From a virus, in the IMG/VR virus record IMGVR_UViG_3300011126_000093: a stretch of DNA of 38,861 nt. One strand, written 5' to 3'. This document shows, in pieces, positions 2,380 to 36,323 of this stretch (position 1 is its first letter; every line of letters begins with the position of its first letter). A program made the position numbers and the translations under genes. The notes beneath the pieces are model-generated. The model saw nothing but the letters and a program-made list of their open reading frames with translations. It was not told the DNA's origin and did no database searches.

Positions 2380-2423
2380 TTTTTATTCCTTATCTTTGTT
2401 TGCTTCGTTTACTTTATGTTTTA

Positions 2424-2467
2424 ACTATACCTGACCTGTTTTGTTTGTGTAGGACACTATGCGCCAA
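2424..2467 (-). promoter_or_regulatory. Box-type promoter (TTGGCGC-N5-GTCCTAC, 19 bp, TATAGT)
   Basis: Minus strand reads TTGGCGCATAGTGTCCTAC-N19-TATAGT, about 45 nt upstream of the ATG at 2379. Confidence 0.6.
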
Positions 2468-20620: not shown

Positions 20621-22614
20621 TACCGTTCCTCTTCACTCATAGTTTCAACCGCTACACCAAGGCCGATTCCCGCACCTAGTCTAGGATATTGTTTTTCAAT
20701 CAACTTAATCAGGTCAGTATTAGGCTTGTAGCCCTGCACCGCCCGATTAGCCATTGACGCTGCTTTAGCACTACGCCCCATCTCTTGTACTTGGTTGCCG
20801 ATAATCGGCCCAACGGTAGGGATTTTATTTAGCAGCGAAAAGACGCCAAGCTTAGCCATGCTATCAATAAAAAATCCAGCAGAACCTTTAGGGATAGCGC
20901 CTGCCGGTGGTATTAAATCTTCAGCCTGCTTGCGCATTAGCTTTAGCTTTGCAAACTCTTCAGGCGTGAATACTTTTTTAAGCTTTGGCTCTAACTGGTC
21001 GTAGCGCTTAACAAAAGCATTAGCCCCAAATGTGCGTTCTCCCTGAATCTTTCGGCTAGAAGCTCCGTAACCTGAATCCATTAAATCTAGGATAAACTCT
21101 GCCTTCATTGAATTCTTTGCGAATCGCCCACGGCTTCCAGCTCTATCTAGCGACTTGATAACTTTATCAAACTGCTCAATAGGTGTGGACTTGGCCACCA
21201 GCTTAGAGTAAACCTGACTCTCTTCAATGCTTGGCACTCTGCTCTTAAATGACTTATCCGCTATTAGCTGAGAAACCAGAGCCTTATCGTCAAACTCTGT
21301 CTTTAGTGCGACATGAGACAAGCGGGCATTCTTAGCAGCTAAAGCAACATCCGGCGCGCCTGTTTTTTCTAATGCGCTAGATGCAAGCTCAAACTCAGAA
21401 TCCAAAGCCTTTCTAATCGGGCCTACAATCCTAGACGTTGCTCCGGTAGGGTCGCCAGCTTCAATAGAAGCCAACCGCTTTCGGAATCGCTCTTGATTTG
21501 AAATAGATAGGTTTTCGACTGGTATCTTTCCATCACCCTTTATAATTCCAAACTCTTCCATCAACCCCTTCAAGGCGTTGTACTCACCTGTTTTCGTGGT
21601 GGCAAAGTCTCTGAATTCACCAGGTTCAGGGAAGGCGTCCAAGATCGGGCGCTTAGACAATTCAACATCAATATCTTTAGTTACTTCAGCAAGCGTATCG
21701 TAAGCTTGGGCGCGCTTGAATCGTGCCGAGTTCTCGCGTAATTTGATAGCGTCCTTCACTGCTGCGCCAACTTCGCCAGCCTGTTCTGGGGAAATATCTT
21801 CCAGATACTTCTTAATCTCACGGCTCTGATTTAGCTTAAAAGCTCGCATCGTGTCGCCAGCTTCGCCAGATTGCTCTAACAAGAATTGTTCTTGCTTTAG
21901 CTTATCAAAACCGGATTGTGTTGATTTTAAAGCCTCACCTTCAGTAATTGGTATCCCTGATTTCTCAGCTTGAATAACCTCAACTGGCTTTTCTTTAGGT
22001 CTAATAGGCTTCGTGGCTTTGCCTGCCAAATCAGCAGCCTTAACGGCTTGCGGTGTCGCCCTTGCAACTTGCCCAATTGCCGCCAATTGACCACCAAAAC
22101 CAGCTAACGGCGCTAATGCCTCGCCAGCTTCACCAAGAGCCCGTACATACTCTTGGCCGACCTCGGTACGCGGAGCATAAGTTAGCGCCTGCGAGTATTC
22201 AGCAGCTAAGTTCTCAATGCGGTCGGCAGCGTCTTGCGTTCCGAATTTGCCTGAACGAATTTCATCAGCCAAACCTTTAAGGGTTCCGCCAAACATTCCA
22301 AGCGTGCCGCCTGTAGCGCCCGTAGCGGTTGTTAATGCAGCTTCGCCAACACCTAGTGCCTTTTGACCAATACCAGCCTCTGGCTTAGGCTGAGACGGCG
22401 CAATAAGCCCTTCAATGTCAGGTTGGTCTCCGTACATATCAGCGAATTGTTCTGGAGTTAGGCTGCCTTTGGCTGGCGTCTCAGTAGAGGCTTGCACACC
22501 AAAATCTTCAGCAGTAGCTAACCCGGCAGATATGGCTTTCTGCATTATCTGATCTTTAGTGGTGCCCTCTGGAACACCTTCGATAATCGTTCCGTTCGGT
22601 AGCTGCACTCTCAT
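20620..22614 (-). CDS. internal virion / DNA-ejection protein (P22 gp16 position)
   Basis: Synteny with the P22 order 4-10-26-14-7-20-16-9. A/G/K-rich and 664 aa long. Confidence 0.5.
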   Translation of the reverse strand: MRVQLPNGTIIEGVPEGTTKDQIMQKAISAGLATAEDFGVQASTETPAKGSLTPEQFADMYGDQPDIEGLIAPSQPKPEAGIGQKALGVGEAALTTATGATGGTLGMFGGTLKGLADEIRSGKFGTQDAADRIENLAAEYSQALTYAPRTEVGQEYVRALGEAGEALAPLAGFGGQLAAIGQVARATPQAVKAADLAGKATKPIRPKEKPVEVIQAEKSGIPITEGEALKSTQSGFDKLKQEQFLLEQSGEAGDTMRAFKLNQSREIKKYLEDISPEQAGEVGAAVKDAIKLRENSARFKRAQAYDTLAEVTKDIDVELSKRPILDAFPEPGEFRDFATTKTGEYNALKGLMEEFGIIKGDGKIPVENLSISNQERFRKRLASIEAGDPTGATSRIVGPIRKALDSEFELASSALEKTGAPDVALAAKNARLSHVALKTEFDDKALVSQLIADKSFKSRVPSIEESQVYSKLVAKSTPIEQFDKVIKSLDRAGSRGRFAKNSMKAEFILDLMDSGYGASSRKIQGERTFGANAFVKRYDQLEPKLKKVFTPEEFAKLKLMRKQAEDLIPPAGAIPKGSAGFFIDSMAKLGVFSLLNKIPTVGPIIGNQVQEMGRSAKAASMANRAVQGYKPNTDLIKLIEKQYPRLGAGIGLGVAVETMSEEER

Positions 22615-23651
22615 TACATGCTATCCCATGAAATAATAGTTTCTGATTGCTGCTCTTGTGGCTGACTTTCGGCACCAAGTTCACGCTCTTTAACTTCAAT
22701 CTCTCTGACTTTATTTTCAATGAATGAGTTTAGCTGAGCTATTTTAGCCTCTGCGCTAGCGTCTGGATCACCCATCGTTTTCTTTAGGGCTTCACCTTCC
22801 GTTGCCGTAAATGCAGCGCCAAATGTTTGCTTTAGTAGCGGTAAAACTTGGTTATCAATAATCGCGATAAACTTAGCTCTAGCCTCTGCACCTTTCGTTG
22901 CTCCAAATCCAGCCTCTTTAGCCAAGAAATCAAAAGCCTTTCCTGAATAAGTATTGGTAGCCACAGGCGCAAGAGTTTTCAGGGAATCAACAACCCCAAT
23001 CAGACTTGGAAGCGCAGCCTTTGCTGAATCAAGCTGAGTCACGCTTTCGCCCTTGCTCTTACCTTGCACTTCGGCAGCTTTAACCGCTCGTGCAATATCA
23101 GCCTTGGCCTTGCCTACGATATTAGAAGTGGTTGAAATGCCACGGGACTTGCCTTCTTCGGCAGCTTGAGCTTTGGCCCCAGCTATAATTGATTCAGATT
23201 CGGCAACTTCCCCAGCTTTACCAGTATCTGATATTGTCATCGCGCTAGAACCTACAGCTCTTGGAGCCAAGCCAAGCTTAATGCGGCGTGCCTGCTCTTT
23301 TTCTTCAGGCGTCATCCCGGCGGTTAGTTGCTCGAACTCTTGCTGACTTAGGCTTGATACATTGCCTTGCGCCTCGCGTCGCTGCTTCATCATCCCAGTT
23401 ACCTGCGATACAAACTCAGGAGCAATCTGAATGGCTTGCATAAACGCTTGCTGTGAGGCTTGCGGATCGGTATCAGATAGCTGCGAGGCTTGGTCTAGTA
23501 GCTGCATAGCTTGCTGCTGCTTCTGCGTGTTAGCTTCAGCGGCCTGTTTGTTTTGATATCCTTGAGCTAGCGCTTCAATACCTTGGCCAATCGCATTTGA
23601 GCGATTCTGGCCAGCCTGAATGAATCCGCCAAACATATTGCCGTTAGCCAT
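22614..23651 (-). CDS. internal virion / DNA-ejection protein (P22 gp20 position)
   Basis: Synteny; Q/A-rich; TAATG-coupled to both neighbours. Confidence 0.45.
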   Translation of the reverse strand: MANGNMFGGFIQAGQNRSNAIGQGIEALAQGYQNKQAAEANTQKQQQAMQLLDQASQLSDTDPQASQQAFMQAIQIAPEFVSQVTGMMKQRREAQGNVSSLSQQEFEQLTAGMTPEEKEQARRIKLGLAPRAVGSSAMTISDTGKAGEVAESESIIAGAKAQAAEEGKSRGISTTSNIVGKAKADIARAVKAAEVQGKSKGESVTQLDSAKAALPSLIGVVDSLKTLAPVATNTYSGKAFDFLAKEAGFGATKGAEARAKFIAIIDNQVLPLLKQTFGAAFTATEGEALKKTMGDPDASAEAKIAQLNSFIENKVREIEVKERELGAESQPQEQQSETIISWDSM

Positions 23652-24379
23652 TAGATGTTGCTCCCGATATTATAGCCAAGACCAATTCCAGCAGCGCCAG
23701 CACCGGGTATTAGAGCTGCCAAACCTGCACCAGCCAAGCCACCAAGCATATTAGGCTGCATAGCCGCCGCATTAGCCGCCTGTAGGTTTATATTCGCAAT
23801 GTTACCCAGTGCTCCAGCCTGTCCAGCAGTAGTGCTCTGAAGGCCTTGGAGTTGTGTACCCATTGCGCCCAGACCAAGATTTACACCTTGGCCTAGCTCA
23901 TTAAGCCGGTTTTGGTATGATTGGTTGGCGTAGTTAGTCGCAAGCTGCCCAGTATTGCTAAGTACGTCACGCTGAATACCAGAAGATAAGCGATTTCCGA
24001 GAGCTGCTGAGTTAGAAACCAACTGATCTGTTGCCGCGCCTGCAATGTTCTGGAACTCCTGACCCTCAAGAGCGCGCTGCATGTAGCCTTCCCTGCCACC
24101 GCTAGTCAGTAGTTCTTGGAATTCAGGGAGGAATGATTCTCCCGCCTCCCGGTATGGCGCGGTCATTTCAAGGAAGCCTTGATACTGCTGAGCGTATAAG
24201 TCTGATATTTCTTGCTGAGTGGCAGCCGCTTCCTTCGCTGCATCCTCAAGTGAATCATCAGGCTCAAGAGCGGAGGCTGGGTCTGTCATTCCACCAACTA
24301 TCCCGCCAAGACCAATATTCGTTAAACCTTGGTCGGTTGTTGGGTCGATACTAGATAGCCCATCCTTTACTTTTCCCAT
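23651..24379 (-). CDS. internal virion / DNA-ejection protein (P22 gp7 position), with a Gly/Ala-rich C-terminus
   Basis: Synteny; C-terminal GGLAGAGLAALIPGAGAAGIGLGYNIG. Confidence 0.45.
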   Translation of the reverse strand: MGKVKDGLSSIDPTTDQGLTNIGLGGIVGGMTDPASALEPDDSLEDAAKEAAATQQEISDLYAQQYQGFLEMTAPYREAGESFLPEFQELLTSGGREGYMQRALEGQEFQNIAGAATDQLVSNSAALGNRLSSGIQRDVLSNTGQLATNYANQSYQNRLNELGQGVNLGLGAMGTQLQGLQSTTAGQAGALGNIANINLQAANAAAMQPNMLGGLAGAGLAALIPGAGAAGIGLGYNIGSNI

Positions 24380-24849
24380 TACAATAGCCTCTCGATTTCT
24401 TTTCTTGTTGCACCTAGGCGCATTCTGTCTAATAGTTTACCACCTTTGAGTATTGACTTTCTATCAATGCCCTCAATGATTAAGCCAAACTTCAAGCAAA
24501 ACCCAATAACATCCGGGTAGCAAACTGGAACGCAAGCATTAACCTTCAAGATGCTAGGGTAGGATTTAAACAATTTTATAGCCGCCATATTGACAAGGCT
24601 GTGTGCGTGCTCCCTTTTGCCACTCAAGAAGTTACAATGAACACTTACCGTGATTGAACTTTCTGGCTCGAAAATAACAACTCCGCACAAATCACTACCA
24701 TAAAAACAACCATATATAACCTCAGAGGCGGAAAAGCTTATTGTTAAGTTAGGATCGTTACACTTGTCGTTTCCGATTCTCTCGAACAATTCAGGGTCTG
24801 ACATTATCTCTATGGCTTCGTCTTGCGATATAGTTTTAATTGAGTACAT
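24379..24849 (-). CDS. GNAT-like acetyltransferase-fold protein (P22 gp14 position)
   Basis: C-terminal ...KVNACVPVCYPDVIGFCLKFGLIIEGIDRKSILKGGKLLDRMRLG fits the GNAT beta-alpha-beta ending (N..s..l..k.GF..EG..r). GC content is lower than the flanking genes. Confidence 0.5.
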   Translation of the reverse strand: MYSIKTISQDEAIEIMSDPELFERIGNDKCNDPNLTISFSASEVIYGCFYGSDLCGVVIFEPESSITVSVHCNFLSGKREHAHSLVNMAAIKLFKSYPSILKVNACVPVCYPDVIGFCLKFGLIIEGIDRKSILKGGKLLDRMRLGATRKEIERLL

Positions 24850-25367
24850 TACCCCACCCTTATGAAGTCGCCAGCTTCACCGTTTGATATTTTTGCGAAT
24901 GAATACCAGCTTGTTCCAATAGATGGGTTTCCAGTAGGGTCTGCCGTTATCCCGGTACTTTGCAATCTCACACCTTGAAGACCTGTACTTGGAACTGTTG
25001 TGCCGCTATTTATTGTTGCACCTGTATTGTTGAATAGAACACGAGTAGTGCCAATCGGGGTAGTTGTGTAGTCAACCGGAGGTACTGATGCGAATGATGA
25101 TGGTATTGCATCGCCAACAGAAAAGGCCTGCCCGCCCCTTAGTGAGTGCCATTCTGTATCTTTTAGGTATATATCAAAGCCAAGGTAGATGGCTGTATAT
25201 TCGTCCGAGTCAGGAAAGGTTGTACCCTCAAGATCTTCATAGTGAACAACCTCCGGCAAGGATATTAGCTGTTGCTGAGCAAGCCTTAGCCAGTCAACCA
25301 TTTCAGGGCCAAACCCTGTAAGTAATCGAAACGCTTCATCAGGAAGCTGTATCTGACCTCTGATCAC
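24849..25367 (-). CDS. tail needle/plug-position protein (P22 gp26 position), 172 aa
   Basis: Called from synteny only; no motif recognised. Confidence 0.35.
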   Translation of the reverse strand: MIRGQIQLPDEAFRLLTGFGPEMVDWLRLAQQQLISLPEVVHYEDLEGTTFPDSDEYTAIYLGFDIYLKDTEWHSLRGGQAFSVGDAIPSSFASVPPVDYTTTPIGTTRVLFNNTGATINSGTTVPSTGLQGVRLQSTGITADPTGNPSIGTSWYSFAKISNGEAGDFIRVG

Positions 25368-26911
25368 TGTTCGCGACCTCCTGATTTTATCCTACTCATT
25401 AGTTTGATAATTTTTGAAGGGAAAGCATTTTCGAACCGCAATTTAATAACAACAGCTTGTCGGAATAATCCCCAGTTTAAAAAGCGAGTTCGTGCGCTAT
25501 CAGAGCTAACAACTGAGTTTCTTTCTGCTCCGTAGGTGCCGCCAAAGTCCTTAGATACTGCAACGTAAACGCTTTGATCTGTATCACCATCAATCGAACA
25601 TATTGGCTCAAGCTCTGAAACCTTAATATTTTGCTGATTGGCATTTATTGGCCCGGTCTCACAGAACCGATCCGGAGTTAATCCAAACTCCTGCCCAGAG
25701 CTAGAAATAGGCTTTGAAAGCTCAAATGAAATAAGGCCGCCACCAACCGTGACATTACTTCCAACAAAAAGATCTTGACCGTAAGCCGTGCCATAACCAG
25801 TAACTGACCAACGGTCTCCGTCACTACTCATTTCAAACCAGCGCTTATCTGTAATGTTGTAGCAGAATGTCAGGTCATCGACACTCACTGACAGAATGTC
25901 ACGTCCCTTATCACGATAACCGAAAAGCTTAACTTTCCTTAGTATGTCAAATGAGTCCAAGCCTTTGATTTTTTCATTGATAGCATAATCAACTGCTGGC
26001 GTTGATACGCGGACAGAACCAATAGCTACTACAGAATAAGACCCGCTTTCTGTTCGCCCTAAAACGAATAGCGAGCCTTTAACTTCTGCTTTTGCATGTG
26101 GGCCTGCGCACCCAATAGGAAGCGTTGCCGACCTCTGCCATTGGAATGGCGTGCTTGCTGAGCTGGTAATTGTGAACAGGAAAGCATTGTCAGCATCAAA
26201 AACCCATAAAGCCCCGTTTAAATTATGCGCCCCGGTCAGCCTTGAGACAGAGTTGTCAGGACTGAAAAACTGAGTAGCCTTTGGGAGTGTCGCGCCAATG
26301 TCAGAATAATAGCAGCGGAAACGATCTGAACCTGTATCGTCATAACTAACCCAGATTATCCGACCGCCAGCAAAAACAATATCGTGAAATTTAGGATTCA
26401 ATGGGAACTCAGATAACACATTAATGGCCGAAGCACTAGTTCCGGGATATGAAATCTCGCAGTATGAACCGTTGCTTGAAACACCAGCAGCGTAAGCCGG
26501 TGAGCATATAATAATATCATCCTGAGATAGTGCTATCCGCGCATAATCAAATCCGTCAGCAAAATCCAGCTTTGTTGGCTTACCTGCATCGCCACGATAA
26601 AACATAGCGTAGGTCTGATAAGGAACCAGTACAGCATCGCCAGCGCTAGCGGTTGCCAAGGCATTTGGTGACACTGAAACAGTGGTTGATTGAGAGGTAA
26701 TCACACCAGCGGTTGCAGATGAATAGTCCTGAGTTGCTGAACCGCTTGTAGCGGTTTGGTCGGCTATTAAATCCAACCCTGATGGGCACTCAAGCATATT
26801 GGTAGACAGTGAGCCGTTAGGTTCATTAATCGGAATCAGGTTAACGCAACGACGCGCACTGTTCTTTAGCGTAGTCGATTCATAGAAGCCGTTTAGTGGG
26901 ATTTCTTGCAT
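25364..26911 (-). CDS. gp10-like tail hub protein
   Basis: The N-terminus MQEIPLNGFYES...VNLIP and the C-terminus ...FLNWGLFRQAVVIKLRFEN...KIIKLMSRIK parallel P22 gp10 (MPIQQLP...; ...RVGRIRRLIGFKLRV). Confidence 0.6.
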   Translation of the reverse strand: MQEIPLNGFYESTTLKNSARRCVNLIPINEPNGSLSTNMLECPSGLDLIADQTATSGSATQDYSSATAGVITSQSTTVSVSPNALATASAGDAVLVPYQTYAMFYRGDAGKPTKLDFADGFDYARIALSQDDIIICSPAYAAGVSSNGSYCEISYPGTSASAINVLSEFPLNPKFHDIVFAGGRIIWVSYDDTGSDRFRCYYSDIGATLPKATQFFSPDNSVSRLTGAHNLNGALWVFDADNAFLFTITSSASTPFQWQRSATLPIGCAGPHAKAEVKGSLFVLGRTESGSYSVVAIGSVRVSTPAVDYAINEKIKGLDSFDILRKVKLFGYRDKGRDILSVSVDDLTFCYNITDKRWFEMSSDGDRWSVTGYGTAYGQDLFVGSNVTVGGGLISFELSKPISSSGQEFGLTPDRFCETGPINANQQNIKVSELEPICSIDGDTDQSVYVAVSKDFGGTYGAERNSVVSSDSARTRFLNWGLFRQAVVIKLRFENAFPSKIIKLMSRIKSGGREQ

Positions 26912-28365
26912 TATCGTTTACTCAGAAACAGGAATGATTCAGTGTCAGCCGTAACATTTGTTGTGTCAGATAGATTTGCCACTTGCAGCTTAAGGTAATC
27001 ACCATCGTCCAAATCAACCGGGACGACATTGACAAAAAACACACGGTCAGCCGTTAAAACCCTGTTTTCTATAACTTCAGTCTGAGAGGCCACATCAACA
27101 AAGGAAGAAGCCGACTCATCCCATTTGACCAGTTTTATAGTTACCTCATCACCGTTGCCGCCGATCAAGTCAATATTGTAGTTTGCAGAATATTCCTGTG
27201 GGCTTGACGTGTCATGCCTTATCTGACCATTTGCTGGGGAGCTAAAATGGTCTAGGTTGCTCGCAGCCCAAGTTCCAGCCAAGTCGTAAAAAGTACCGGA
27301 AGAAGCTATTGAGGTGGCAGAGCTAGATGATACAGAAAGCTTTCCGCCTTGCGATGTGTTGCGAATGCCTACGCAGCCCTCCCACTTTGAACACAGGTTT
27401 GTCTGATCCATATTAGGGGTGATGGTGGTGTCAGATGGGTCAAAAACGCCATTCCGCTGAAGCTGAGCGCCATTAAGCTGTACTGTATTGTCATTAGGGA
27501 ACATCGCTGGCGTGAAATCAAAGAAGGCCGCAGTAGAGCCTAAATCTGCATTTATATCAGAGAAGAATCGGTTCTGCATTGAGAAGCCGGGGCCCGCTTT
27601 AAAGAGCGGGTCGGTCATTGCGTCACTTATTCCAAATACATTTGTCGTACTGATACGATAGCCGCCAGACCATGCCCCGGTAAGCGTTAGTGATGGAGTG
27701 CTACCAAACATACCACAACCAACCTCAAGACCCTGACGATAACCGTCTATTTCGCCTCTGTTTGTGCATCCAACAAAATTGACCTTGTTAAATTCAATCG
27801 CGCTATTTCCATCCACTGAAACAAGATCAAAAACCTGCGACCCAGAACCGTCCGTGGTTACATACAAATCCTGAAGAAAGACATTCCCAGAGCCACCAAC
27901 TGGTGAGGTGAACATGGTGTAGCTATCGTCATTACAGATTAGTCCGAAGTTATCCAGCGAAAATCCGACAATACTCAAGCCGCCTAAGGGAACTTCGATT
28001 GATACACCTGTGCCAGTAAGGTCAATAACTCCATCCACCGCATATACAACATTGCTTGATAGGGTGCCGGATAGGTCGCCAGCTGTTTTGACTACTGATA
28101 AATATTCAAAAGTCTTGCCGTTAAGCGTGATTATGTCTGATTGAGCGGCTGCCAATCCAGACTCGACCGCATCCATTTCAGACTGTAGCTCTGCAATATC
28201 ATCATAAGCTTCTTGATCAAGCGATATAATGGATTCACGCAACGGAACCCGCGCCATTCTGTTTCCTTCAGCCGCAATAGGATCATACACAATAGCCTGC
28301 GCAGTCGAGGACAGTGATTTTTCTTCAATCTGGCTGGCATTACGCTTTTTCGTTAAATCAACCAC
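26911..28365 (-). CDS. second tail-fibre/spike-like protein (484 aa, GTG start)
   Basis: The N-terminus MVDLTKKRNASQIEE..LSS...IVYD..A.EGNRMARV parallels the tailspike N-terminus. SD GAGGAG. Inserted between the gp4-like and gp10-like genes. Confidence 0.55.
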   Translation of the reverse strand: MVDLTKKRNASQIEEKSLSSTAQAIVYDPIAAEGNRMARVPLRESIISLDQEAYDDIAELQSEMDAVESGLAAAQSDIITLNGKTFEYLSVVKTAGDLSGTLSSNVVYAVDGVIDLTGTGVSIEVPLGGLSIVGFSLDNFGLICNDDSYTMFTSPVGGSGNVFLQDLYVTTDGSGSQVFDLVSVDGNSAIEFNKVNFVGCTNRGEIDGYRQGLEVGCGMFGSTPSLTLTGAWSGGYRISTTNVFGISDAMTDPLFKAGPGFSMQNRFFSDINADLGSTAAFFDFTPAMFPNDNTVQLNGAQLQRNGVFDPSDTTITPNMDQTNLCSKWEGCVGIRNTSQGGKLSVSSSSATSIASSGTFYDLAGTWAASNLDHFSSPANGQIRHDTSSPQEYSANYNIDLIGGNGDEVTIKLVKWDESASSFVDVASQTEVIENRVLTADRVFFVNVVPVDLDDGDYLKLQVANLSDTTNVTADTESFLFLSKR

Positions 28366-28368
28366 GCG

Positions 28369-28860
28369 TTACTCCTCAAAGCTAATTATAAAGCCGTCAT
28401 CATCAGTGATGGATACATCAGCATCAGTTGTTAGGTCTTCAATGTAGTCCGTACCTAAGTTCTGATACTGCGCATAAGTATTACACCCGCGAGTATTGCC
28501 AGCACCAAGCGGCATGTAAGGGTTGCTAATGCTACGAGGTGGGATAATGCTAAACAGCGCCTTGTAGGCGTTACCGGCGTTCAGGCGGTAAGTTGGCGAA
28601 ATAAACAAATCTAATTGATCCGCAAGCTCGCAGGCTAGGTTCATGCGAGTTACTTTTAAGAACTGAACTAACAGCCCGGATTCATCAGTAATGGCAGTGG
28701 TCTCATCTTGAAGGTATCCAATATCAATACCCTCATTCAGCCATGCCGCCATCATTTGATCTAGCGTACGAAGGCCACGCGCAAGCAAAGACGCATCATA
28801 GTCGCCATTGAATGAAATATCATCTAAAGCTTGCTCTATGATCGTCTGCTTTGTTGTCAT
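28369..28860 (-). CDS. gp4-like head-to-tail adaptor
   Basis: TLDQMMAAWLNEGIDIGY, NLACELAD and YMPLGAGNTRG parallel P22 gp4 (DLEAMMAEWYQDG, NLACRIAPDY, MPTGSGN). Confidence 0.6.
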   Translation of the reverse strand: MTTKQTIIEQALDDISFNGDYDASLLARGLRTLDQMMAAWLNEGIDIGYLQDETTAITDESGLLVQFLKVTRMNLACELADQLDLFISPTYRLNAGNAYKALFSIIPPRSISNPYMPLGAGNTRGCNTYAQYQNLGTDYIEDLTTDADVSITDDDGFIISFEE

Positions 28861-29196: not shown

Positions 29197-30417
29197 TTAC
29201 TGACCAGTTAAGCAAACCGCGATGCGTTCAGGGTGCTTAGCAACTACATCAAAGTAAGCAACGCCTTTACAGTGCATATCACCAGTATGGAAGTCTTTTT
29301 CCATGGTCATCACTAAAGGAATGCCGTTTTCAGTAGTTGTAACAACCTCATCCACACCCGGCCCACCAAGAGGCAGCTGTCCCGGCACCAATAGCAGAGA
29401 CTCAGGAGTGTAGAAGATTGACGGTGCTGAAGTGGTAGTGTTCAGAATTGTTACCGCAGCCGTGTCAGCCGCTACAGCGTCACAGTTGGCGTAAGGGCCA
29501 GTAGTAACAATAGCCGGACTAATGGTTAATGCTGAAGCCGTACCACCGATTACCGTAAAGGTCTGAAGGCTGCCGGTAGACTCGCGCGTTTCAGGGTTCA
29601 ATGCAAACACGTTAGCGATTGTGAACTTAGTGCCTCGCGGCATGTTAGTAATCGTTCCGGTATTAACATTTAGAGTCATACGGCGGTTGTCGTAGAACTC
29701 AGTAGTTGAACCTGTAACGTAAGTCTGCGGTGTGTGAGACTGAGCACCATTAACCGTTACGCCAGTCTGACTGTTACCAGCTAAGGTTTTGCGGTAGTCA
29801 GCGCGCATGGTATCAAACGTCTGAAGCATAGGAAGTTTTGCACGAGTAAGTGCGTCCTTCGGAATGCCGTCAGTATATTGATAAGCACCAAGCTGCTGAG
29901 CCACGCCAGAGTAGTCAGGCAAAGAAAGGAATGCTTTCTTGTTGTAACCACCTAAGCCACGATCTGCCATTAGTACTTCGACATCAGCAGCAGTCTGCCA
30001 TTCAAAAGCAGAAGCAGAAGAGTACACTAGCGCACCTTCTTCAATCGCCGTTTCATAAGCCGCTACGTCAATAGCGTTGCGAATATCACGAGCGATACCC
30101 TCACCAGCCATTTTCAGTAGTCGCGGGTCACGCATTTCTTTCGCTGATATTTTGAAAAGAACGCGCTTAACTTTAGTGCGGTCAATCTTAATCATACGAT
30201 CAATCAAGTCTTGGAAGTCAGAGTCTGAAGACGTTAGACCATCCTGAACATTGAAACGGTATTCCTGCGGTAGGTATACTTGATCGTCAGTTCGCGCACC
30301 TTCAACTTCACCCATGTTGAAATTTTCAAGGGCTTTTGAGAGTGTGCAGTTAATGTCAGTGGTAGACGCTACGTCGTCCCACATTACCTTGATTTCGTTA
30401 CCGATTTCGTTAGCCAT
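29197..30417 (-). CDS. major capsid (coat) protein
   Basis: Position after the scaffold gene, 406 aa, a dedicated promoter upstream of scaffold and a terminator directly downstream. Confidence 0.7.
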   Translation of the reverse strand: MANEIGNEIKVMWDDVASTTDINCTLSKALENFNMGEVEGARTDDQVYLPQEYRFNVQDGLTSSDSDFQDLIDRMIKIDRTKVKRVLFKISAKEMRDPRLLKMAGEGIARDIRNAIDVAAYETAIEEGALVYSSASAFEWQTAADVEVLMADRGLGGYNKKAFLSLPDYSGVAQQLGAYQYTDGIPKDALTRAKLPMLQTFDTMRADYRKTLAGNSQTGVTVNGAQSHTPQTYVTGSTTEFYDNRRMTLNVNTGTITNMPRGTKFTIANVFALNPETRESTGSLQTFTVIGGTASALTISPAIVTTGPYANCDAVAADTAAVTILNTTTSAPSIFYTPESLLLVPGQLPLGGPGVDEVVTTTENGIPLVMTMEKDFHTGDMHCKGVAYFDVVAKHPERIAVCLTGQ

Positions 30418-30428
30418 TTTATATCACC

Positions 30429-31304
30429 TTAATCTTTTTGGGCGGCTCTATATTTGCGATGATTCTCTAAGCTAGGATTTGCCAGCCATTCTTTTTTAGC
30501 CGTTTCAATCCGCTTAGACTTTGCATCAATAGAACCAGTGTTTTTAAATTCGGGTTCTGGTTTAGTTTCGATTTTACGCTTCGGGCTAACCTTAACCTTT
30601 TGCGAAGCCTTGCGAAGATGACGAACAATAGCTCTCTCGTTCTGAGCATCGTTAGCCACTTGTTCAAACACTCCCGGAATTTCCGCTAGCGCTAAAACAG
30701 AAGTAGCGTAATCAATGCCATACGTTGCGCAGATTTCAGCAATACCGTAAGAGACCTGCTCAAAATCAGCACCTGCCTCGGTTACTTTCGACCTAAGCTT
30801 GTCTTCTGATTTATCGTAGGTTTTCAACTGTGAGCGCATACGTTCCGCGCTTTCTAGCTGTTCCTCAAGTACGCCGTCATCAATATTAAAAGCATTACTC
30901 GACTGCTCTTTAGTCACCACCTGACTGGATTCCCACTCACGAATCGCCTTTGCATAATTCTCAGGCTCTCCGTAGTAGTCATCAGCCTTTGGCTTTGACT
31001 TCTCAAGCAACTGAGCTTCCATGCGCTTAATACGCTGTTCAAGCTCTGTCTTTTCACGCTCCACCTTTTCACGGGCTTCGCGTTGCTTCTTAAACTTCGC
31101 TGCTTTCGCCTTAGCTACAGCTTCCCAATTCGTACTATCTTTTGCCGTTTCAGTATCTGGCTCGGCTTCAACTGTTAATTCGTACTCATCTTGATCGGTA
31201 TCAGCGTCTTGTGGTGTAACGCCTTCCTCTACTTCAGCCACCACAGCTTCGGTAGGTTGCTCAATTTCGTTCTTATCTTCAGTCATAATTCCAGAATCAC
31301 CCAT
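30429..31304 (-). CDS. scaffolding protein
   Basis: Acidic, charged, coiled-coil-type sequence (EKVEREKTELEQRIKRMEAQLLEK), located directly before the coat gene. Confidence 0.6.
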   Translation of the reverse strand: MGDSGIMTEDKNEIEQPTEAVVAEVEEGVTPQDADTDQDEYELTVEAEPDTETAKDSTNWEAVAKAKAAKFKKQREAREKVEREKTELEQRIKRMEAQLLEKSKPKADDYYGEPENYAKAIREWESSQVVTKEQSSNAFNIDDGVLEEQLESAERMRSQLKTYDKSEDKLRSKVTEAGADFEQVSYGIAEICATYGIDYATSVLALAEIPGVFEQVANDAQNERAIVRHLRKASQKVKVSPKRKIETKPEPEFKNTGSIDAKSKRIETAKKEWLANPSLENHRKYRAAQKD

Positions 31305-31362
31305 TTGAATTCTCCGTCAGGTGGTAACGTAAACACGGTAAAGCACCGTGGGGCCTATGGAC

Positions 31363-31392
31363 ATTTTACGACACTATCATTGACAAGTGCAA
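31363..31392 (-). promoter_or_regulatory. sigma70-like promoter for scaffold and coat (TTGCAC-18-TAAAAT)
   Basis: Minus strand reads TTGCACTTGTCAATGATAGTGTCGTAAAAT. The 5' UTR carries the hairpin CACGGT-GCTTT-ACCGTG. Confidence 0.5.
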
Positions 31393-31408: not shown

Positions 31409-31430
31409 AAAAAACCGGCACGTGGCCGGT
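31409..31430 (-). terminator. Rho-independent terminator after the 335-aa gene
   Basis: Minus strand reads ACCGGC-CACGT-GCCGGT followed by TTTTTT. Confidence 0.7.
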
Positions 31431-31451
31431 CTTCTTATTAGCTGGTTGGGG

Positions 31452-32459
31452 TTACTCGCTTAAATCATAATCCCGATAAACAACCTCATAATCAGGGCTA
31501 TAGTTATGGGGGATCAAAACACTAATCCCTGTTTCGTCTTTCATTTCCACCGCATCAAAACCTTGTCTTTTTGCGAGAATACCTCTAAGTCTCTGCGCCT
31601 CATACTCAGGCACCTCACCATATCGAGATAACACCTCACTTATTTCTGGGTTATTTAACACTATATTCCCATCGTCATTTGCAATAACCTCATATAAATC
31701 ATCAAATAAACCTTCATCAACATCATCAAAACTATCTTTTATAAACTCCATTGACTTATCAAAATCAAAATCAACATCACCCTCCCTAGCTATCCTACCT
31801 TGATCTATGGAAAAGGTTGTCTGCTTAGAGTCAGAACCTAAACCACTACTAGATCTATCGCCATATTTGCCAAACAAACCACCAAAATTAGGATCGTCAA
31901 GAATGCCTTTAATTTCACCCCCTTCATGAGTAACAATCTTCCGCCCGCTATCTTCCAGCTTTTTCCACAAATCAGGATCTATAGCACTCTGCTTGGCCGA
32001 TACTTTAGTAGGTGCCTTTCCGGTTGGCAAAATCTCAAAAGCTGCCGTAGGAAGTGTGGCGGCGGCCGCGGCTAGCTCTGGACTATCTGTTGCATCTAAA
32101 ACCTTATCGCCAAGATAACCAGAAAAATTATCTACAGCCTCTCCTATTTTTCCAATAGTAGAACCTAAATAACCTATTCCTTTTTTTCCTGCTTCAGTCC
32201 TTGGTTCGTATGTCATTCTGTTTTGTATACTTTCAATATCACCAGTTGCGCTGTCTAAATCCTGAAATACCAGAGAACCCAACCCATAAAGACCACTAGC
32301 AGGCTCAGCCACTGCTCCGCTAATCATAGACAAGCCAACCTCACCAACGCCTATAGCAACATCAACAACGGTATTAAAACCACGGTCAATCAACTCCTCA
32401 GCTGCTGCTATCTGATCTTCATTCAATCTACGGCTATTTATAAGGCTTGATAGTTTCAC
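31452..32459 (-). CDS. unknown 335-aa protein inserted between portal and scaffold (candidate virion cargo protein)
   Basis: Absent from the P22 gene order. AT-rich (about 33% GC in a hand count). G/A-rich hydrophobic N-terminus and a C-terminal ...AKRQGFDAVEMKDETGISVLIPHN. Confidence 0.55.
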   Translation of the reverse strand: MKLSSLINSRRLNEDQIAAAEELIDRGFNTVVDVAIGVGEVGLSMISGAVAEPASGLYGLGSLVFQDLDSATGDIESIQNRMTYEPRTEAGKKGIGYLGSTIGKIGEAVDNFSGYLGDKVLDATDSPELAAAAATLPTAAFEILPTGKAPTKVSAKQSAIDPDLWKKLEDSGRKIVTHEGGEIKGILDDPNFGGLFGKYGDRSSSGLGSDSKQTTFSIDQGRIAREGDVDFDFDKSMEFIKDSFDDVDEGLFDDLYEVIANDDGNIVLNNPEISEVLSRYGEVPEYEAQRLRGILAKRQGFDAVEMKDETGISVLIPHNYSPDYEVVYRDYDLSE

Positions 32460-34633
32460 GATGCAATAACCCTCAGTAGGTCCTCGTTGCTCATTCCTCT
32501 AGCGGCACTCCTCAAGGTTGCCTTTCGCATCTCTTGAACTTTAGCCATATTATCAAGTTGCTGGCCTTCGATCTCGGTCATGGTCTTATTGACGTCCATT
32601 CCTGACTTCTGCGCTTTCTGTATTGCTTCAAAGCGCTTAGTTTCAGCATTGAACATATCGACCTGCTTATCGACCATAGCCGCTTGACCTTCCATCATGC
32701 GAGCCTGTCCTTCCATTGCCATGGCTTGCGCTTGTGGGTTCTGCTGCTGCTGAGCCTGCATGACCTGCTGGATAGTGATTTGCATAATGGCTAGCTCTTC
32801 TTCAGAGCGGATGCCTAGCTTTTCAGGTGGGTAGCCGTTCATCAGCAACGGTAGCGACTGCTGCACCAGTGACTGAATCTGCTGAATGCGTGCCAGTGTC
32901 CGCATATCTTGCATACCTTCGCCAGTGGTGTTCGTGATTGCGCTCAGTAGTGCCATCTGCCCCAGCGGCGTACCAGAGTCGGCGTATTGAAGAATCTCAA
33001 TAGCCGCGTTTCTCTCGGCATCCTTCTTTGTTCTGTAGCTCTCGCCTTGCTTAATAGATACATCATAACGCCCGCGTGCTGTGTTCTTTGTTGCGCCGTA
33101 TACATCGCGCTGTTGATCGTATGACGGAACCATGGTTTCAATCTGGACGTAGTTACCATCCTCCTCCATACCTCGACGCTTGCGGGGATTAGTGAAGTAC
33201 AGCTTCTGCGCTGCTGGTATCCACGTTCGACATGCAACACGGATAGAACTTGAGGCAGAAGTCATTAATGGAAGGAACGCATCGTCAGTACGCTCGTTTA
33301 CTTGCTGAATTGCAGAGGCACTTGAATTGCTTGGTAGTGTCGCCTGCCCATTGGCTGACTGCTCTTGAATGTTCTGCGATAAGAACTGCAAGCTCGTAAC
33401 AAGCCCGGAACGTGCCTCTGGTGGATCATACCGACCAATTGGGCCAACGTGTCTAATAGAGCCGTCAGCTTCTCGTACTGGGTCACTTAGCAGGAATGGG
33501 CGGTTTATTACTGACTGCTCCGCTCTTGCTTGACCGTGTCGCTCCATTTGCTCTGGTAGGTATTCAGGCTTAGATACTTGCGGCTCTGACAGAATTTCCA
33601 TTAACGCACCAAAGCCCATGTTTAGAAATCGCTGCGAGTCACGCTGACGGCATACTTCACCGCAATAGAACTCAATACCGTTGATTTCGTGGTGATAGCC
33701 GTACATCGGAATCAATGGAATATTCTTAAACGGCAGTTTGGCTGGCTTAGTCAGATACTTATCACCTGACATAATCGCGTACTCAACGAACTTAACCTTA
33801 CGGCGCTTTTCGTCGTATTCGTTTATTTCAAGTATTAAATCAACGTCGTCCTTGTCGATTCGCTCACCATCCGGGCCAATGTATTTGCGGCCATCTTTAG
33901 TGATTAAGAAAGTACCGCCATCGGCATCGTAAACCGAATACTCGACAATAGTCTTAGTGACTAACTCATAGTAGTGAGCAATATAAACATCGCGGCCACC
34001 ATCGCCACACGTCCAAGAGAAGTCACCGTTAGACATTGTGCCGGCAGGAAACGAGCTGAAATCAACGCCGTATTCTTCTTCTGTCTTCTCACGATTAACG
34101 CGCTGCAAGTGCCAACCTTGAACGGCGTCCGTCTTATCACGACGCAAGGCACCAGCATTGAAGAACACACTAGACGCAGCGGAGCCGATCATTTCAAAGG
34201 ATAGGTATTGCTGGTCATCTTGCGGGTCTTCTTCATCTTCGTACTTGGCCACCTCTTTGTACGCACCGAATCCACCGAAGGCGGCTTCCTCAAACGCTTT
34301 ATTGATAGCATCTGCGCCATCAGAGCCATTAAAGTCGTTGCGCCATAGCTTCTGCAATGTCTCAGCATCGTCATCAGTGGCTTCATCGCTTGCGCTTGAA
34401 ATCTTTGCGCCAAATTCAGCTTCTTGGAATCGTCCGATGATGGCCATGATATTTTTAAAGAGTTTGTTGTTTTCTGGCTTCGGTTTATTCGCCCACTGCT
34501 TACCATCCGAGCCTACCCACTGCTTGCCGGGAATGAGCGCGAACTCTAAATCAGCTATGACTTGTTGACGCAGGTCATACTCGCTTGAGTAAGCCTTTCG
34601 GAAATCTGTTAGCGTTTCTGTAGCTGCTCTCAT
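32456..34633 (-). CDS. portal protein (P22-type, with a C-terminal helical barrel)
   Basis: 725 aa, directly downstream of TerL. Long Q/M/A-rich helical C-terminus (QQVMQAQQQQNPQAQAMAMEGQARMMEGQ...). Confidence 0.8.
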   Translation of the reverse strand: MRAATETLTDFRKAYSSEYDLRQQVIADLEFALIPGKQWVGSDGKQWANKPKPENNKLFKNIMAIIGRFQEAEFGAKISSASDEATDDDAETLQKLWRNDFNGSDGADAINKAFEEAAFGGFGAYKEVAKYEDEEDPQDDQQYLSFEMIGSAASSVFFNAGALRRDKTDAVQGWHLQRVNREKTEEEYGVDFSSFPAGTMSNGDFSWTCGDGGRDVYIAHYYELVTKTIVEYSVYDADGGTFLITKDGRKYIGPDGERIDKDDVDLILEINEYDEKRRKVKFVEYAIMSGDKYLTKPAKLPFKNIPLIPMYGYHHEINGIEFYCGEVCRQRDSQRFLNMGFGALMEILSEPQVSKPEYLPEQMERHGQARAEQSVINRPFLLSDPVREADGSIRHVGPIGRYDPPEARSGLVTSLQFLSQNIQEQSANGQATLPSNSSASAIQQVNERTDDAFLPLMTSASSSIRVACRTWIPAAQKLYFTNPRKRRGMEEDGNYVQIETMVPSYDQQRDVYGATKNTARGRYDVSIKQGESYRTKKDAERNAAIEILQYADSGTPLGQMALLSAITNTTGEGMQDMRTLARIQQIQSLVQQSLPLLMNGYPPEKLGIRSEEELAIMQITIQQVMQAQQQQNPQAQAMAMEGQARMMEGQAAMVDKQVDMFNAETKRFEAIQKAQKSGMDVNKTMTEIEGQQLDNMAKVQEMRKATLRSAARGMSNEDLLRVIAS

Positions 34634-34637
34634 TATC

Positions 34638-36323
34638 TCACCAATAGTTCACGGGATTGACATAGACCGAATCTAACGGCTTTTCTTCCCTATGAATGAT
34701 ATTACAATCATTGTCAAATGAAATTATAACTGAATCAAAAAGGTTTGGCGACGGTATTACCATTCGCTTTCCGTCAGGCATTATGACGCCCTTCCTCATT
34801 TCCGGCTTGGTGTAAAATTGAACCGTAGGGCCAGACTTGACAGGAACCTTGCACGCTTCAGCCTTAAGCTTTTGCATCATGCGCGGCTCTATCGTTTCAG
34901 AATCGAAGCTAACTAATGTTTCAGGGTCGTAATACTTACCCTCTACCACGGCCTCATATGTTCTATAAACACGGTCGGCAAACTCGGTGATGTTCTGAGC
35001 TTTCTTGTTCTTTAGTACGTCTTTAATCAATAAACGCTTAGCATTGTTATTCAGATTAGACACCTGAGACTTAAACTCGCCATCTGGATTGTGAGGCGTC
35101 TCAGAACCTTTGTATGCGTTTATCTTTACGCTCTTGCCATTGAATGCCGCTGATACATTATCCCGAAGCGTTGCACCTAGTCCGTCTGCATCATATCCGA
35201 ATGAATCAACCTGATTTAACACTGCCAGCTTGCAGGCTTCGTCCATCTTGCGATTGCCGTTCTCGCCATCAATCTCTTGAATGTGACTAAATACAACACC
35301 AGTCCGTATACTGAATCCGAATGGGTCGGTACCAACATCAGAAGGGTCGGCAGTGGCAACACTCAAGCCGCGACCCTCAAAGCCTAATTTCTTATGAGCA
35401 TCAATACACGCTTCAAACCAGTCTTCCTGAATAATTGAAGTCGCGCAATTATCGTTAAAGTCACCATTCCAGATACCGTTAAACCTTGCTTTGCTCATAA
35501 TGCGCTTTTTAACCTTTTCGCGGTCTTTGCTTATTTCAGCTTGAAGGGATTCGTCATGCTCAAACCACGGATTATCCTTGTACGTTAGTTTAACAATATA
35601 GTGGTATTCGTCCTCGTAGAATCCATCGCGGTCTAAAGCGGCTTGATAAGGCGTAATGAATTCTTTTGACATCGGGTCTTCAGAGCTTGCGGTATTCCAC
35701 AAATACCAGAGTTCAGCGCCTTGCACATCCCTAAGCGTTGGACCTAATGTGTCGATAGTGTTCTGGCTTGTTTTCTCTGACTCTTCCATCAAAAAGTATT
35801 TAAAGTCTGACGTTCCTTTCATGTCGATGATATTTTGCATACCACCAAACACGAACTTCCCTTTTGACGAATGGCGTATCTCCCAACGAGAAGGAACGGG
35901 AAGGAAGCCGCCAACGTTCATTTTTTTGATAGTTGTTTCAATACCAGAGTAGATAGATTCTTTGAGCGCTGTCATTCGCTCCCTAAGTGCGTATGCCTTG
36001 CATCCAGTGGATGATACCTGACTAACCATTACATTTTGTGCGAAGCGCGTCTTCATGCCGCCACGACCGCCAAACAGGCACTTATACTTTTTGTGCTTCA
36101 GTATCAGGGGTTCCAATTTCTCAACCAGAAGAACGTCAGGCTCTTCATCGGTTGGAACCATTTCACCTATCTTTCCCTTCCAGCATCTAATGACATTTGG
36201 CACTAGCTCGCCGTCTATTTTATCAACACGGTCAATAACACCATAAACGGCAGGCTTTAGGTTTCCTGACATCGCATTGGCCAGAACTTCAATATTGTCT
36301 AAGCGCTTGCTAAGACTGAGCAT
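34638..36323 (-). CDS. terminase large subunit
   Basis: Walker A FGGRGGMKT, Walker B-like YFLMEE and 561 aa, following the small subunit. Confidence 0.85.
   Translation of the reverse strand: MLSLSKRLDNIEVLANAMSGNLKPAVYGVIDRVDKIDGELVPNVIRCWKGKIGEMVPTDEEPDVLLVEKLEPLILKHKKYKCLFGGRGGMKTRFAQNVMVSQVSSTGCKAYALRERMTALKESIYSGIETTIKKMNVGGFLPVPSRWEIRHSSKGKFVFGGMQNIIDMKGTSDFKYFLMEESEKTSQNTIDTLGPTLRDVQGAELWYLWNTASSEDPMSKEFITPYQAALDRDGFYEDEYHYIVKLTYKDNPWFEHDESLQAEISKDREKVKKRIMSKARFNGIWNGDFNDNCATSIIQEDWFEACIDAHKKLGFEGRGLSVATADPSDVGTDPFGFSIRTGVVFSHIQEIDGENGNRKMDEACKLAVLNQVDSFGYDADGLGATLRDNVSAAFNGKSVKINAYKGSETPHNPDGEFKSQVSNLNNNAKRLLIKDVLKNKKAQNITEFADRVYRTYEAVVEGKYYDPETLVSFDSETIEPRMMQKLKAEACKVPVKSGPTVQFYTKPEMRKGVIMPDGKRMVIPSPNLFDSVIISFDNDCNIIHREEKPLDSVYVNPVNYW

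Follow-up and report, generated by a model that had tools for sequence, protein, structure and literature searches.

A post-portal gene of a P22-type marine phage encodes a putative cargo protein with a predicted AcrIF11-family ADP-ribosyltransferase domain

The gene between portal and scaffold

The DNA analyzed here, a stretch of 38,861 nt referred to as the window, comes from an uncultured phage found in a marine sediment metagenome. Between its P22-type portal gene (32456..34633, minus strand; PF16510, E=2e-92) and the gene for its scaffolding protein (30429..31304, minus strand; phrog_648), which is conserved in the related locus L003, lies an additional gene of 335 codons plus stop, ORF335 (31452-32459, minus strand). 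The coat gene located further downstream is also of the P22 type (PF11651). P22 itself has no gene in this slot, with 13 nt between its portal and scaffold genes, in line with the earlier statement, made in a sequence-only reading of this DNA, that P22-type modules go directly from portal to scaffold. ORF335 is translationally coupled to the portal gene, as its start codon (GTG, 32459-32457) overlaps the portal stop codon (TGA, 32458-32456), and this start is supported by the allele P0004, which has ATG at the same position. The overlap had therefore been recognized correctly, but the sequence reads GTGA and not ATGA, as had been claimed.

A protein cluster identical to ORF335 is on record (P0002). 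The whole protein had no match in Pfam, and in PHROGs it matched phrog_11282 alone, a family of unknown function. Likewise, megablast with the 7.4-kb module retrieved nothing from cultured phages, and no prophage relatives came up when bacterial genomes were scanned with ORF335 and, separately, with the portal.

Directly 3' of ORF335, 17 nt after its stop codon, there is an intrinsic terminator (31409..31435, minus strand), consisting of a GC-rich stem followed by a run of six Ts. Its folding energy of -14.8 kcal/mol (z=-3.2) was not equaled by any of 200 shuffled sequences, in agreement with the strong terminator that had been noticed at this place. The fresh promoter for scaffold and coat, which had been proposed to follow it, is plausible, judging from a candidate sigma70-type element (31363..31392, minus strand) in which TTGCAC and TAAAAT are 18 nt apart. 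Both hexamers are kept in the related loci L003 and L004, with a different spacer, although a consensus scan called no promoter after the terminator.

The base composition of ORF335 departs from that of its surroundings, with a GC content of 41.1% compared with 45.5% for the whole window, which places it among the lowest 4% of 1-kb windows. At third codon positions the value is 29.5%, compared with 40-51% in the neighboring genes, and the C-terminal half of the gene, with 38.9% GC, falls within the lowest 1.4% of windows. A lower GC content had been noticed and is indeed found, but the drop is modest, and far smaller than the hand-counted 33% implies.

The two domains of ORF335

The C-terminal domain of ORF335 (residues 170-321; 31497..31952, minus strand), modeled by AF2 with pLDDT above 90, was related to the anti-CRISPR protein AcrIF11 by several searches. 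A phmmer search of PDB with ORF335 retrieved AcrIF11 (6KYF, E=4.7e-4), and with a profile built from 15 homologs of the same architecture the E-values were 1.8e-20 for 6KYF and 1.2e-10 for 8DWQ. The same two structures were found by Foldseek with the AF2 model, 6KYF at E=4.9e-6 (probability 1.0, TM of 0.67 by target length) and 8DWQ as the second match (E=6.5e-3); ART toxins such as MbcT and cholix toxin were also listed, as weak matches with E above 0.2. Structural identity between this domain and AcrIF11 is only 24%. Residues 183-316 matched positions 11-142 of the 142-position NCBIfam model AcrIF11_anti (NF052490; E=4e-10), with 40.8 bits, which falls short of the equivalog cut-off of 50 bits, and a precomputed match to PF26151 (AcrIF11_ADP_ribosyl) is listed for P0002 and for the homologs P0044 and P0024.

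The residues expected of an active enzyme are in place. His178 (codon at 31926..31928, minus strand) is equivalent to H20 of AcrIF11(Pae2), whereas Asp308 and Glu309 (codons at 31533..31538, minus strand) are equivalent to D115/E116 of Pae1 and D146/E147 of Pae2, for which a role of H20 and mutagenesis of the two acidic pairs have been reported (10.1101/2024.08.26.609590). The conserved ART residues of ORF335 align with positions whose mutation kills AcrIF11 activity. H178, F192, G194, F196, Q289, R292, G293, D308 and E309 are invariant or nearly so among homologs, with D308/E309 invariant in the 15 of the same architecture. The C-terminal block that had been singled out from the letters alone is real, as it turned out to be the most conserved segment, the catalytic motif, which aligns with the AcrIF11 catalytic loop. 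By sequence and model, therefore, the C-terminal domain of ORF335 is an AcrIF11-family ADP-ribosyltransferase with intact catalytic residues, and an enzymatic activity is predicted for it.

AcrIF11 ADP-ribosylates residue N250 of Cas8f (Csy1) and thereby blocks type I-F CRISPR-Cas. In the case of ORF335 the target may well not be Cas8f, given the NF052490 score below cut-off and the 24% structural identity. Fold, catalytic His and Asp-Glu loop are common to ORF335 and AcrIF11 (6KYF, 8DWQ; PF26151, NF052490), and the AcrIF11 motif QRLRG...VEM-DE-G is almost identical in both. However, AcrIF11 stands alone as a small protein (130-170 aa) from early acr loci, whereas in ORF335 the domain is preceded by a 145-aa module and the gene belongs to the late structural operon. 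The two also differ in their helical insert, which in AcrIF11 has been proposed to be the element of target recognition (10.1101/2024.08.26.609590).

Relatives of the ART domain sit within polyvalent proteins of 1000-6850 aa, as the earlier description of the C-terminus as polyvalent-like would have it. ORF335 itself did not match the ART-PolyVal family (PF18760) at E up to 5, and its resemblance to this family is feature-based and structural only. When ten further proteins with the ART domain were searched for known delivery domains, the only matches were to methyltransferase, GNAT and ART-PolyVal. A homolog of 39% identity, consisting of N-terminal module plus ART, is also encoded directly behind a P22 portal gene.

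The N-terminal module, or N-module (residues 1-144; 32028..32459, minus strand), is all-helical in AF2 models, and its DNA is homologous to that of L003 and L004 throughout. It includes the hydrophobic, G/A-rich segment noticed previously (residues 30-66, 70% of which are G, A, V, L, I, M or F) and a motif of the general form TYxPRTxxG (TYEPRTEAG, residues 83-91), in which Y84, P86, T88 and G91 are invariant among 54 sequences. From the alignment used for modeling, two rows from annotated GenBank loci were left out.

Dozens of P22-like phages have the same module in the protein encoded at the position of gp16, the third ejection protein, close to its N-terminus. Vibrio phage 1.275.O and Pseudoalteromonas phage H6/1 provide such matches in the protein at this position, annotated there as 'putative ejection protein', and a further match is P0012, which is encoded after the gp7- and gp20-position genes. 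Among 80 IMG/VR loci, 33 N-module proteins come after a gp7 homolog, that is, in the ejection-gene block, and in 11 of the loci the module is at the extreme N-terminus of a protein whose gene immediately follows a P22 portal gene and precedes scaffold and coat. The phage studied here has both arrangements, with a second copy of the module (22000..22401, minus strand) at residues 72-205 of its 664-aa gp16-position protein (gene at 20620-22614). This copy has the motif TYAPRTEVG, and it was detected by BLASTP (E=2e-4) and by an HMM built from post-portal proteins only (E=2.4e-8).

No Pfam family matched the N-module in ORF335 and 56 relatives. LPD38 (PF18857) was considered as its identity and rejected, as none of 56 segments matched at E up to 0.01; P0012 reached a sub-threshold 21.4 bits (cut-off of 27). 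P22 gp16 was also rejected as a family member, with N-module HMMs giving E above 1. A third candidate, chain 9k3a_B of the cyanophage A4 pre-ejectosome, appeared with the full-length model only (E=0.04, rmsd of 16), and it was not recovered when the N-module was modeled alone, in which case the best structural match had E=3. As similarity to P22 gp16, LPD38 or a solved structure was not found, a role of the N-module in packaging and ejection is suggested by gene position and by annotation elsewhere.

Exchange of the C-terminal half and the apparent empty slot

The two domains are joined by a flexible linker (residues 144-155, LPTGKAPTKVSA; 31995..32030, minus strand) with pLDDT below 50, which coincides with a recombination breakpoint. 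From the portal gene through codon 150 of ORF335, relatives are 88-91% identical in DNA; this identity ends at 32005-32011, and homology restarts at 31422 or 31396. The swapped cassette thus delimited (31423..32004, minus strand), which has no DNA homology to these relatives, includes the upstream arm of the terminator stem in addition to the C-terminal domain and its stop codon. Consistent with this, runs X6 and X10 had zero depth over 31511-31914 with covered flanks, and in X6 contigs unlike sequence continues from 32011.

Proteins P0003 and P0004 keep the N-module and carry other C-termini, for which a protein atlas gave ParB-like and ART-PolyVal-like leads. That of P0004 has its ART-PolyVal lead from the atlas only, and its assignment to the ART family of ORF335 was rejected, as it was unsupported by BLASTP and by the ART HMM (E=1.6). 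Distant post-portal N-module proteins have GNAT, ART-PolyVal, LPD23 or Zn-peptidase-like domains. For ART-PolyVal (PF18760; gathering score of 31.2), the post-portal locus L034 scored 47.6 bits (E=3.7e-12), while L043 remained below the gathering score with 25.8 bits (E=2e-5). Next to the allele L004, the opposite strand carries an additional small gene.

In one metagenome contig, with a depth of 885, position 31456 is joined to 32558 through 49 nt, leaving the slot without a gene. Evidence for the empty site and for the alleles comes from metagenome contigs, which are possibly chimeric, and with this qualification there appear to be at least three alleles plus an empty state, the latter in one contig, in near-identical backbones. 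The gene is thus optional, its apparent empty state being that of a close relative, and the sequence-only reading was right in calling it an extra gene in this slot. The opposite possibility, that ORF335 is conserved in this lineage as a component of head maturation, is contradicted by the same apparent empty-site variant. Lateral acquisition, which had been proposed for the whole gene, would apply to the AT-richer, swapped C-terminal half, but not to the first 150 codons, which are conserved backbone.

Possible roles and relation to known systems

Taken together, these observations support the view of ORF335 as an extra, laterally acquired gene for a candidate packaged effector with a polyvalent-like C-terminus. 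We infer, with a probability of roughly 0.6, that it is a non-essential cargo protein that would be packaged into the virion and ejected from it. By analogy, our best reading is that the delivery module would be new, while the working mode would resemble that of MuF-effector fusions, polyvalent proteins or T4 Alt, which provide precedents for delivery (PMC5512222).

Each of these systems differs from ORF335 in some respect. Polyvalent proteins are encoded beside portal-terminase genes and predicted to travel with the DNA (PMC5512222), and one of them, gp47 of phi24B, has been detected in virions by proteomics (10.64898/2026.04.10.717836). They are recognized by at least two conflict domains, shuffling and packaging-gene neighbors, features that ORF335, with its two domains and its place beside the terminase and portal genes, also has, and their shuffled effector domains (ART, GNAT, LPD23, peptidase; PMC5512222) recur in ORF335 relatives. 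However, ORF335 has just two domains, an N-module that corresponds to no Pfam family, and no ART-PolyVal match. MuF fusions (SPP1 gp7 / Mu gp30) are, like ORF335, encoded directly after the portal gene and combine a constant, head-associated N-terminal module with variable C-terminal enzymes, but they have a MuF (Phage_Mu_F) domain, which Pfam did not find in ORF335. Moreover, MuF is a portal-binding minor head protein, whereas the phage of ORF335 is a P22-type podovirus and its module is common to gp16-position proteins. Homology to the N-terminal region of these proteins, in many marine P22-like phages, is not accompanied by their long C-terminal part (they have 500-730 aa), and ORF335 is encoded 9 kb away, post-portal, and not at the gp16-type position after gp7 and gp20 homologs and before the tailspike.

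T4 Alt serves as a functional model, with no sequence relationship to ORF335 detected, as it is a late-made ART that is carried in the capsid and acts when the following infection begins (PMC5512222). Alt is loaded by means of a capsid-targeting sequence and cut by the prohead protease, an enzyme that P22-type phages are not known to have.

Packaged cargo has to be weighed against three other roles. ORF335 could be a late-acting, unpackaged enzyme that, for instance, modifies host or phage proteins in the producing cell or blocks abortive infection, while the N-module is put to some other use, perhaps in targeting to a membrane or a complex. A late-operon gene coupled to the portal gene would suit this role, and phage ARTs such as T4 ModA and ModB do work without being packaged, but we consider it improbable, given that the N-module is shared specifically with ejection-block proteins, that the post-portal position is maintained down to 39% identity, and that the domains fused to it are of the kinds seen in polyvalent proteins, whose presence in virions has been predicted or observed.

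Even less probable, in our opinion, is that ORF335 belongs to the ejection channel as an accessory structural component, a short paralog of the gp16-position protein with a mainly mechanical role, for instance in docking to the inner membrane or to the channel at the gp20 position, its enzymatic domain being secondary or inactive. That the N-module is duplicated from, or shared with, the phage's own gp16-position protein would agree with this, as would the hydrophobic G/A-rich segment and the modeling of the P22 gp16 N-terminal region against the gp20 plinth (10.64898/2026.09.03.749273). However, a fixed structural role fits ill with C-terminal domains that swap freely, and the contig of a close relative that lacks the gene, together with the strict conservation of catalytic residues, also stands against it. 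We likewise give little credit to a MuF-type polymorphic toxin, directed at competing bacteria or phages or killing or arresting the host, in place of a specific anti-defence enzyme. The combination of a constant N-terminal module with variable C-terminal domains after the portal recalls MuF toxins (PMC5512222), the small opposite-strand gene beside the L004 allele might encode immunity, and ART toxins appeared, weakly, in the fold search. Nevertheless, no immunity-like ORF follows ORF335, where the terminator comes 17 nt past the stop; the closest characterized relative, AcrIF11, is a specific, non-toxic modifier of Cas8f of type I-F CRISPR-Cas (10.1101/2024.08.26.609590); and the other alleles, of GNAT, ParB-like and LPD type, have domains typical of anti-defence polyvalent proteins.

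If ORF335 is packaged cargo, the protein would be made late, through translational coupling to the portal, and its N-module would bring it into the procapsid by the route of the ejection proteins. At the next infection it would leave through the portal-tail channel, so that the ART enzyme would enter the new host with the DNA or ahead of it, preceding all phage gene expression. There it would spend NAD+ to ADP-ribosylate a host protein, most likely a component of a defence system, in a manner comparable to that of AcrIF11 on Cas8f. An inhibitor of defence expressed only from the late structural operon would be useless to the infection that produces it, yet it could help the next one if packaged. 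The effector half would be exchanged by recombination at the linker, and relatives would therefore carry different enzymes on one delivery module. It is tempting to go further and regard the TYxPRTxxG module of P22-like phages as a portable 'ejection tag', by which anything fused behind it would be loaded into the capsid and sent into the next host. In this phage, the tag would deliver, just as the DNA enters, an AcrIF11-type enzyme that disables CRISPR-Cas or some other defence, although we hold this more specific proposal to be doubtful.

To our knowledge, anti-CRISPR proteins are made only after DNA entry, so that the genome infecting first is left unprotected. A particle-borne enzyme of the AcrIF11 type, if real, would remove this gap in protection, and few copies would suffice because its action is catalytic. 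With an ejection tag, the cooperative, multi-infection strategy of unpackaged anti-CRISPRs would become unnecessary. The N-module, which belongs to no Pfam family, ties together two positions in P22-like genomes, the gp16 ejection protein and the post-portal cargo slot, and so offers a handle on how ejection proteins are recognized for packaging and exit, which in P22 has been called 'not known' (10.64898/2026.09.03.749273). The slot between portal and scaffold is thereby a place to seek new anti-defence enzymes in metagenomes, and, in laboratory strains, the N-module may serve for loading chosen proteins into P22-type capsids.

An extra gene between portal and scaffold

The window is a nearly complete genome of an uncultured phage; identical DNA is present in a marine sediment metagenome, and relatives occur in seawater metagenomes. 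Its late genes lie on the minus strand in P22 order, namely, large terminase (34638-36323), P22 portal (32456-34633; PF16510, E=2e-92), the 335-aa gene ORF335 (31452-32459), scaffold (30429-31304; phrog_648), P22 coat (29197-30417; PF11651), a gp4-like adaptor (28369-28860), a 484-aa gene (26911-28365; phrog_16509, E=1e-99), a gp10-like hub (25364-26911), a gp14-like gene (24379-24849; phrog_651, head morphogenesis), gp7 (23651-24379; PF25688), the gp20-position (345 aa, 22614-23651) and gp16-position (664 aa, 20620-22614) genes, and a beta-helix tailspike (18521-20620). Since just 13 nt separate the portal and scaffold genes in P22 itself, ORF335 is an extra gene. The 484-aa gene between adaptor and hub is a second one, and another deviation from P22 order. 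For the gp20-position protein, the match is to the C-terminal portion of phrog_26675 (profile positions 334-604, E=7e-20); this PHROG, annotated 'endolysin', may in fact include an ejection-protein module joined to a lysin. In the related contig L006, a 147-aa gene with GNAT Pfam hits (6419-6862) is placed like the gp14-position gene.

The sequence-only reading had described an ATGA-type overlap of ORF335 with the portal stop; the overlap is there, but ORF335 starts with GTG, which forms GTGA with the portal TGA, and it is the allele P0004, from contig L004, that has ATG at this place. The intrinsic terminator noted after the gene was recovered at 31435-31409 (dG -14.8 kcal/mol, z=-3.2). For the fresh scaffold-coat promoter proposed in that reading there is a candidate downstream of the terminator, TTGCAC-18-TAAAAT (31392-31363, minus strand), both hexamers of which are conserved in two related contigs (L003 and L004) with a different spacer, but our promoter scan did not call it. 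Between this candidate and the scaffold start codon, the 5' leader contains a hairpin, CACGGTG-CTT-TACCGTG (31334-31350, minus strand), kept in L003 and L004, which may be linked to post-transcriptional control of scaffold synthesis, known for P22. Sliding-window analysis also bore out the lower GC content, 41.1% for ORF335 versus 45.5% for the window, with a GC3 of 29.5% versus 40-51% in neighbouring genes; the drop falls mostly in the C-terminal half of the gene (38.9%, the lowest 1.4% of windows).

Two domains of different affinity

ORF335, whose translation is coupled to that of the portal, is a late-operon accessory protein with two domains. Its front half (N-module, residues 1-145) is a module found elsewhere in ejection proteins, and its back half (C-domain, residues 170-321) is an interchangeable enzyme whose ADP-ribosyltransferase (ART) active site is intact.

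Residues 30-175 have just two matches in cultured phages, proteins of 593 and 573 aa from Vibrio phage 1.275.O and Pseudoalteromonas phage H6/1. Both adjoin the tailspike on its upstream side, downstream of the gp7- and gp20-position genes, and in H6/1 the annotation reads 'putative ejection protein'. This placement is shared by metagenomic homologues (500-580 aa), one of which, P0012, is encoded by the third and last of three large genes downstream of a gp10-like gene. Scanning IMG/VR with the N-module alignment yielded 80 loci, which were grouped with the help of ORF prediction and of iterated HMMs of the portal, coat, gp7 and further genes. In 33 of them a gp7 homologue lies one or two genes upstream, so that the N-module protein falls within the ejection-gene block; most of these are 450-790-aa proteins at the gp16 position, in which the module begins at residue 35-110. 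At 11 loci the module occupies the extreme N-terminus of a protein encoded directly 3' of a P22 portal, ahead of scaffold-sized and coat genes. The gp16-position protein of this phage is itself matched (residues 85-186, E=2.4e-8) by an HMM made exclusively from post-portal proteins, and also by the ORF335 N-module in BLASTP (E=2e-4); therefore, this phage has two N-module copies.

The TYxPRTxxG motif is kept without exception in 54 sequences, and the module is predicted by AF2 to be all-helical (pLDDT 65-88). None of 56 members matched Pfam, a structure search found no solved relative, and the module was not detectable by HMM in P22 gp16. A further, tight group of ~520-aa proteins, from isolate-genome-derived IMG/VR contigs (L050-L082), has a weaker N-module at residues 55-205 (E ~1e-8 to 1e-10) in a neighbourhood that P22-based HMMs left unannotated; the module may extend past P22-like phages. 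Splitting or truncation affects the post-portal N-module genes of two loci (L083:3887-5163 and L012:3977-4516), probably through assembly or frameshift errors rather than as true short alleles; the L012 portal is fragmented too.

With regard to the C-domain, a search of ORF335 against a local Pfam copy gave no match, and a precomputed PF26151 match is listed for its identical protein cluster. In a protein atlas, this family is AcrIF11_ADP_ribosyl and the domain sits among ART-PolyVal and AcrIF11 clusters. Using phmmer on PDB sequences, ORF335 found AcrIF11 (6KYF) at E=4.7e-4, the C-terminal block singled out earlier aligning to the catalytic loop (EMKDETG versus EMEDEHG). A profile from 15 homologues of the same two-part architecture reached E=1.8e-20 for 6KYF and E=1.2e-10 for AcrIF11-Pae2 (8DWQ). 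An exhaustive search returned 138 representatives at E<=1e-3, 37 of them at E<=1e-10, many embedded in proteins of 1000-6850 aa. The AF2 model (mean pLDDT 80.5, above 90 for residues 160-320) and Foldseek, checks that the sequence-only reading had suggested, returned the AcrIF11 fold, 6KYF (E=4.9e-6, probability 1.0) ranking ahead of 8DWQ and both ahead of ART toxins and PARPs with weaker scores; in a viral library the hits were ART-PolyVal proteins. H178 aligns with Pae2 H20, and D308/E309 with Pae2 D146/E147 and Pae1 D115/E116, all invariant or nearly so across the family; mutation of these AcrIF11 residues abolished ADP-ribosylation of Csy1 and CRISPR inhibition (10.1101/2024.08.26.609590). 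Based on these sequence, profile, fold and catalytic-residue matches, we class the C-domain as a member of the AcrIF11/ART-PolyVal enzyme family, and probably an active one. Its score against the NCBIfam AcrIF11 equivalog model (E=4e-10, 40.8 bits) lies below the 50-bit cut-off, and on this sequence measure we do not class it as an equivalog. Type I-F Cas8f is a possible target by analogy with AcrIF11, made less certain by the low identity and by a score short of the cut-off.

A polymorphic slot

The gene is optional and the slot between portal and scaffold is polymorphic. At the DNA level, L003 and L004 are 88-91% identical to the window across the portal gene and the initial 150 codons of ORF335; similarity ends at 32005-32011, where AF2 predicts a disordered linker (residues 144-155), and is back at 31422 (L003) or 31396 (L004). 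The C-termini of their proteins, P0003 (282 aa) and P0004 (387 aa), are unrelated to that of ORF335, with atlas leads that are ParB-like and ART-PolyVal-like, respectively. In L004, P0004 is followed on the opposite strand by a 109-aa gene (2312-2641, minus strand), within ~640 nt of additional AT-rich DNA (2259-2900) ahead of the conserved scaffold promoter region. This gene had no family match (NCBIfam noise only); it may be an independent moron, or serve as an immunity or partner gene.

The slot was also checked against contigs from other public runs, with flanking pieces of 145-505 nt that are 95-98% identical. X4, an independent marine sample, carries 314 nt of the ART cassette (31576-31889) without a single difference, while the portal and scaffold pieces that flank it differ by 4-6%, a pattern that, in these short contigs, fits recent cassette transfer between backbones. 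X6 and X10 cover both flanks with zero depth across 31511-31914. In X10, a contig at depth 885 links 31456 with 32558 through 49 other letters, and is a portal-scaffold junction without a gene in the slot. All of these are assembled contigs, among which chimeras are possible.

More distant post-portal N-module proteins carry a GNAT acetyltransferase (L023, L013), ART-PolyVal (L034 exceeds the Pfam gathering score, and L043, at E=2e-5, falls short of it) or LPD23 (L051, L016, L019, L027, L048), L019 adding a weak, sub-threshold Zn-peptidase-like match; their sub-modules are shared in a mosaic pattern. A 39%-identical homologue with the N-module plus ART architecture likewise overlaps the end of a P22 portal gene, and at least ten more representatives (50% clustering level) have both domains.

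A putative packaged enzyme

We propose, as the most likely mode of action, that the N-module steers ORF335 into the procapsid, that the protein would exit through the portal-tail channel together with the ejection proteins, and that the ART would work in the next host as DNA enters. Packaging is suggested by the fusion partners of the N-module, which are polyvalent-protein domains, predicted to be packaged by Iyer et al. (PMC5512222); phi24B gp47, a polyvalent protein, has been found in virions. Timing also speaks for packaging, as an inhibitor made late helps little in the infection producing it. T4 Alt and MuF-effector fusions are precedents that operate in this manner.

That ORF335 is instead a late enzyme that stays unpackaged seems unlikely to us. 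Slimmer still, and equal, are the chances that it is an accessory part of the ejection channel with a structural role, or a polymorphic toxin.

In the literature searched we found no description of the N-module as a delivery module or of its tie to P22-like gp16-position ejection proteins, of a portal-scaffold cassette slot, or of an AcrIF11-family enzyme joined to a putative ejection module; packaged or fused forms go unmentioned in the AcrIF11 survey paper. As a packaged enzyme, ORF335 would belong to what is already known in concept, namely, enzymes carried in capsids, and a constant, head-associated post-portal module on which effector domains are exchanged.
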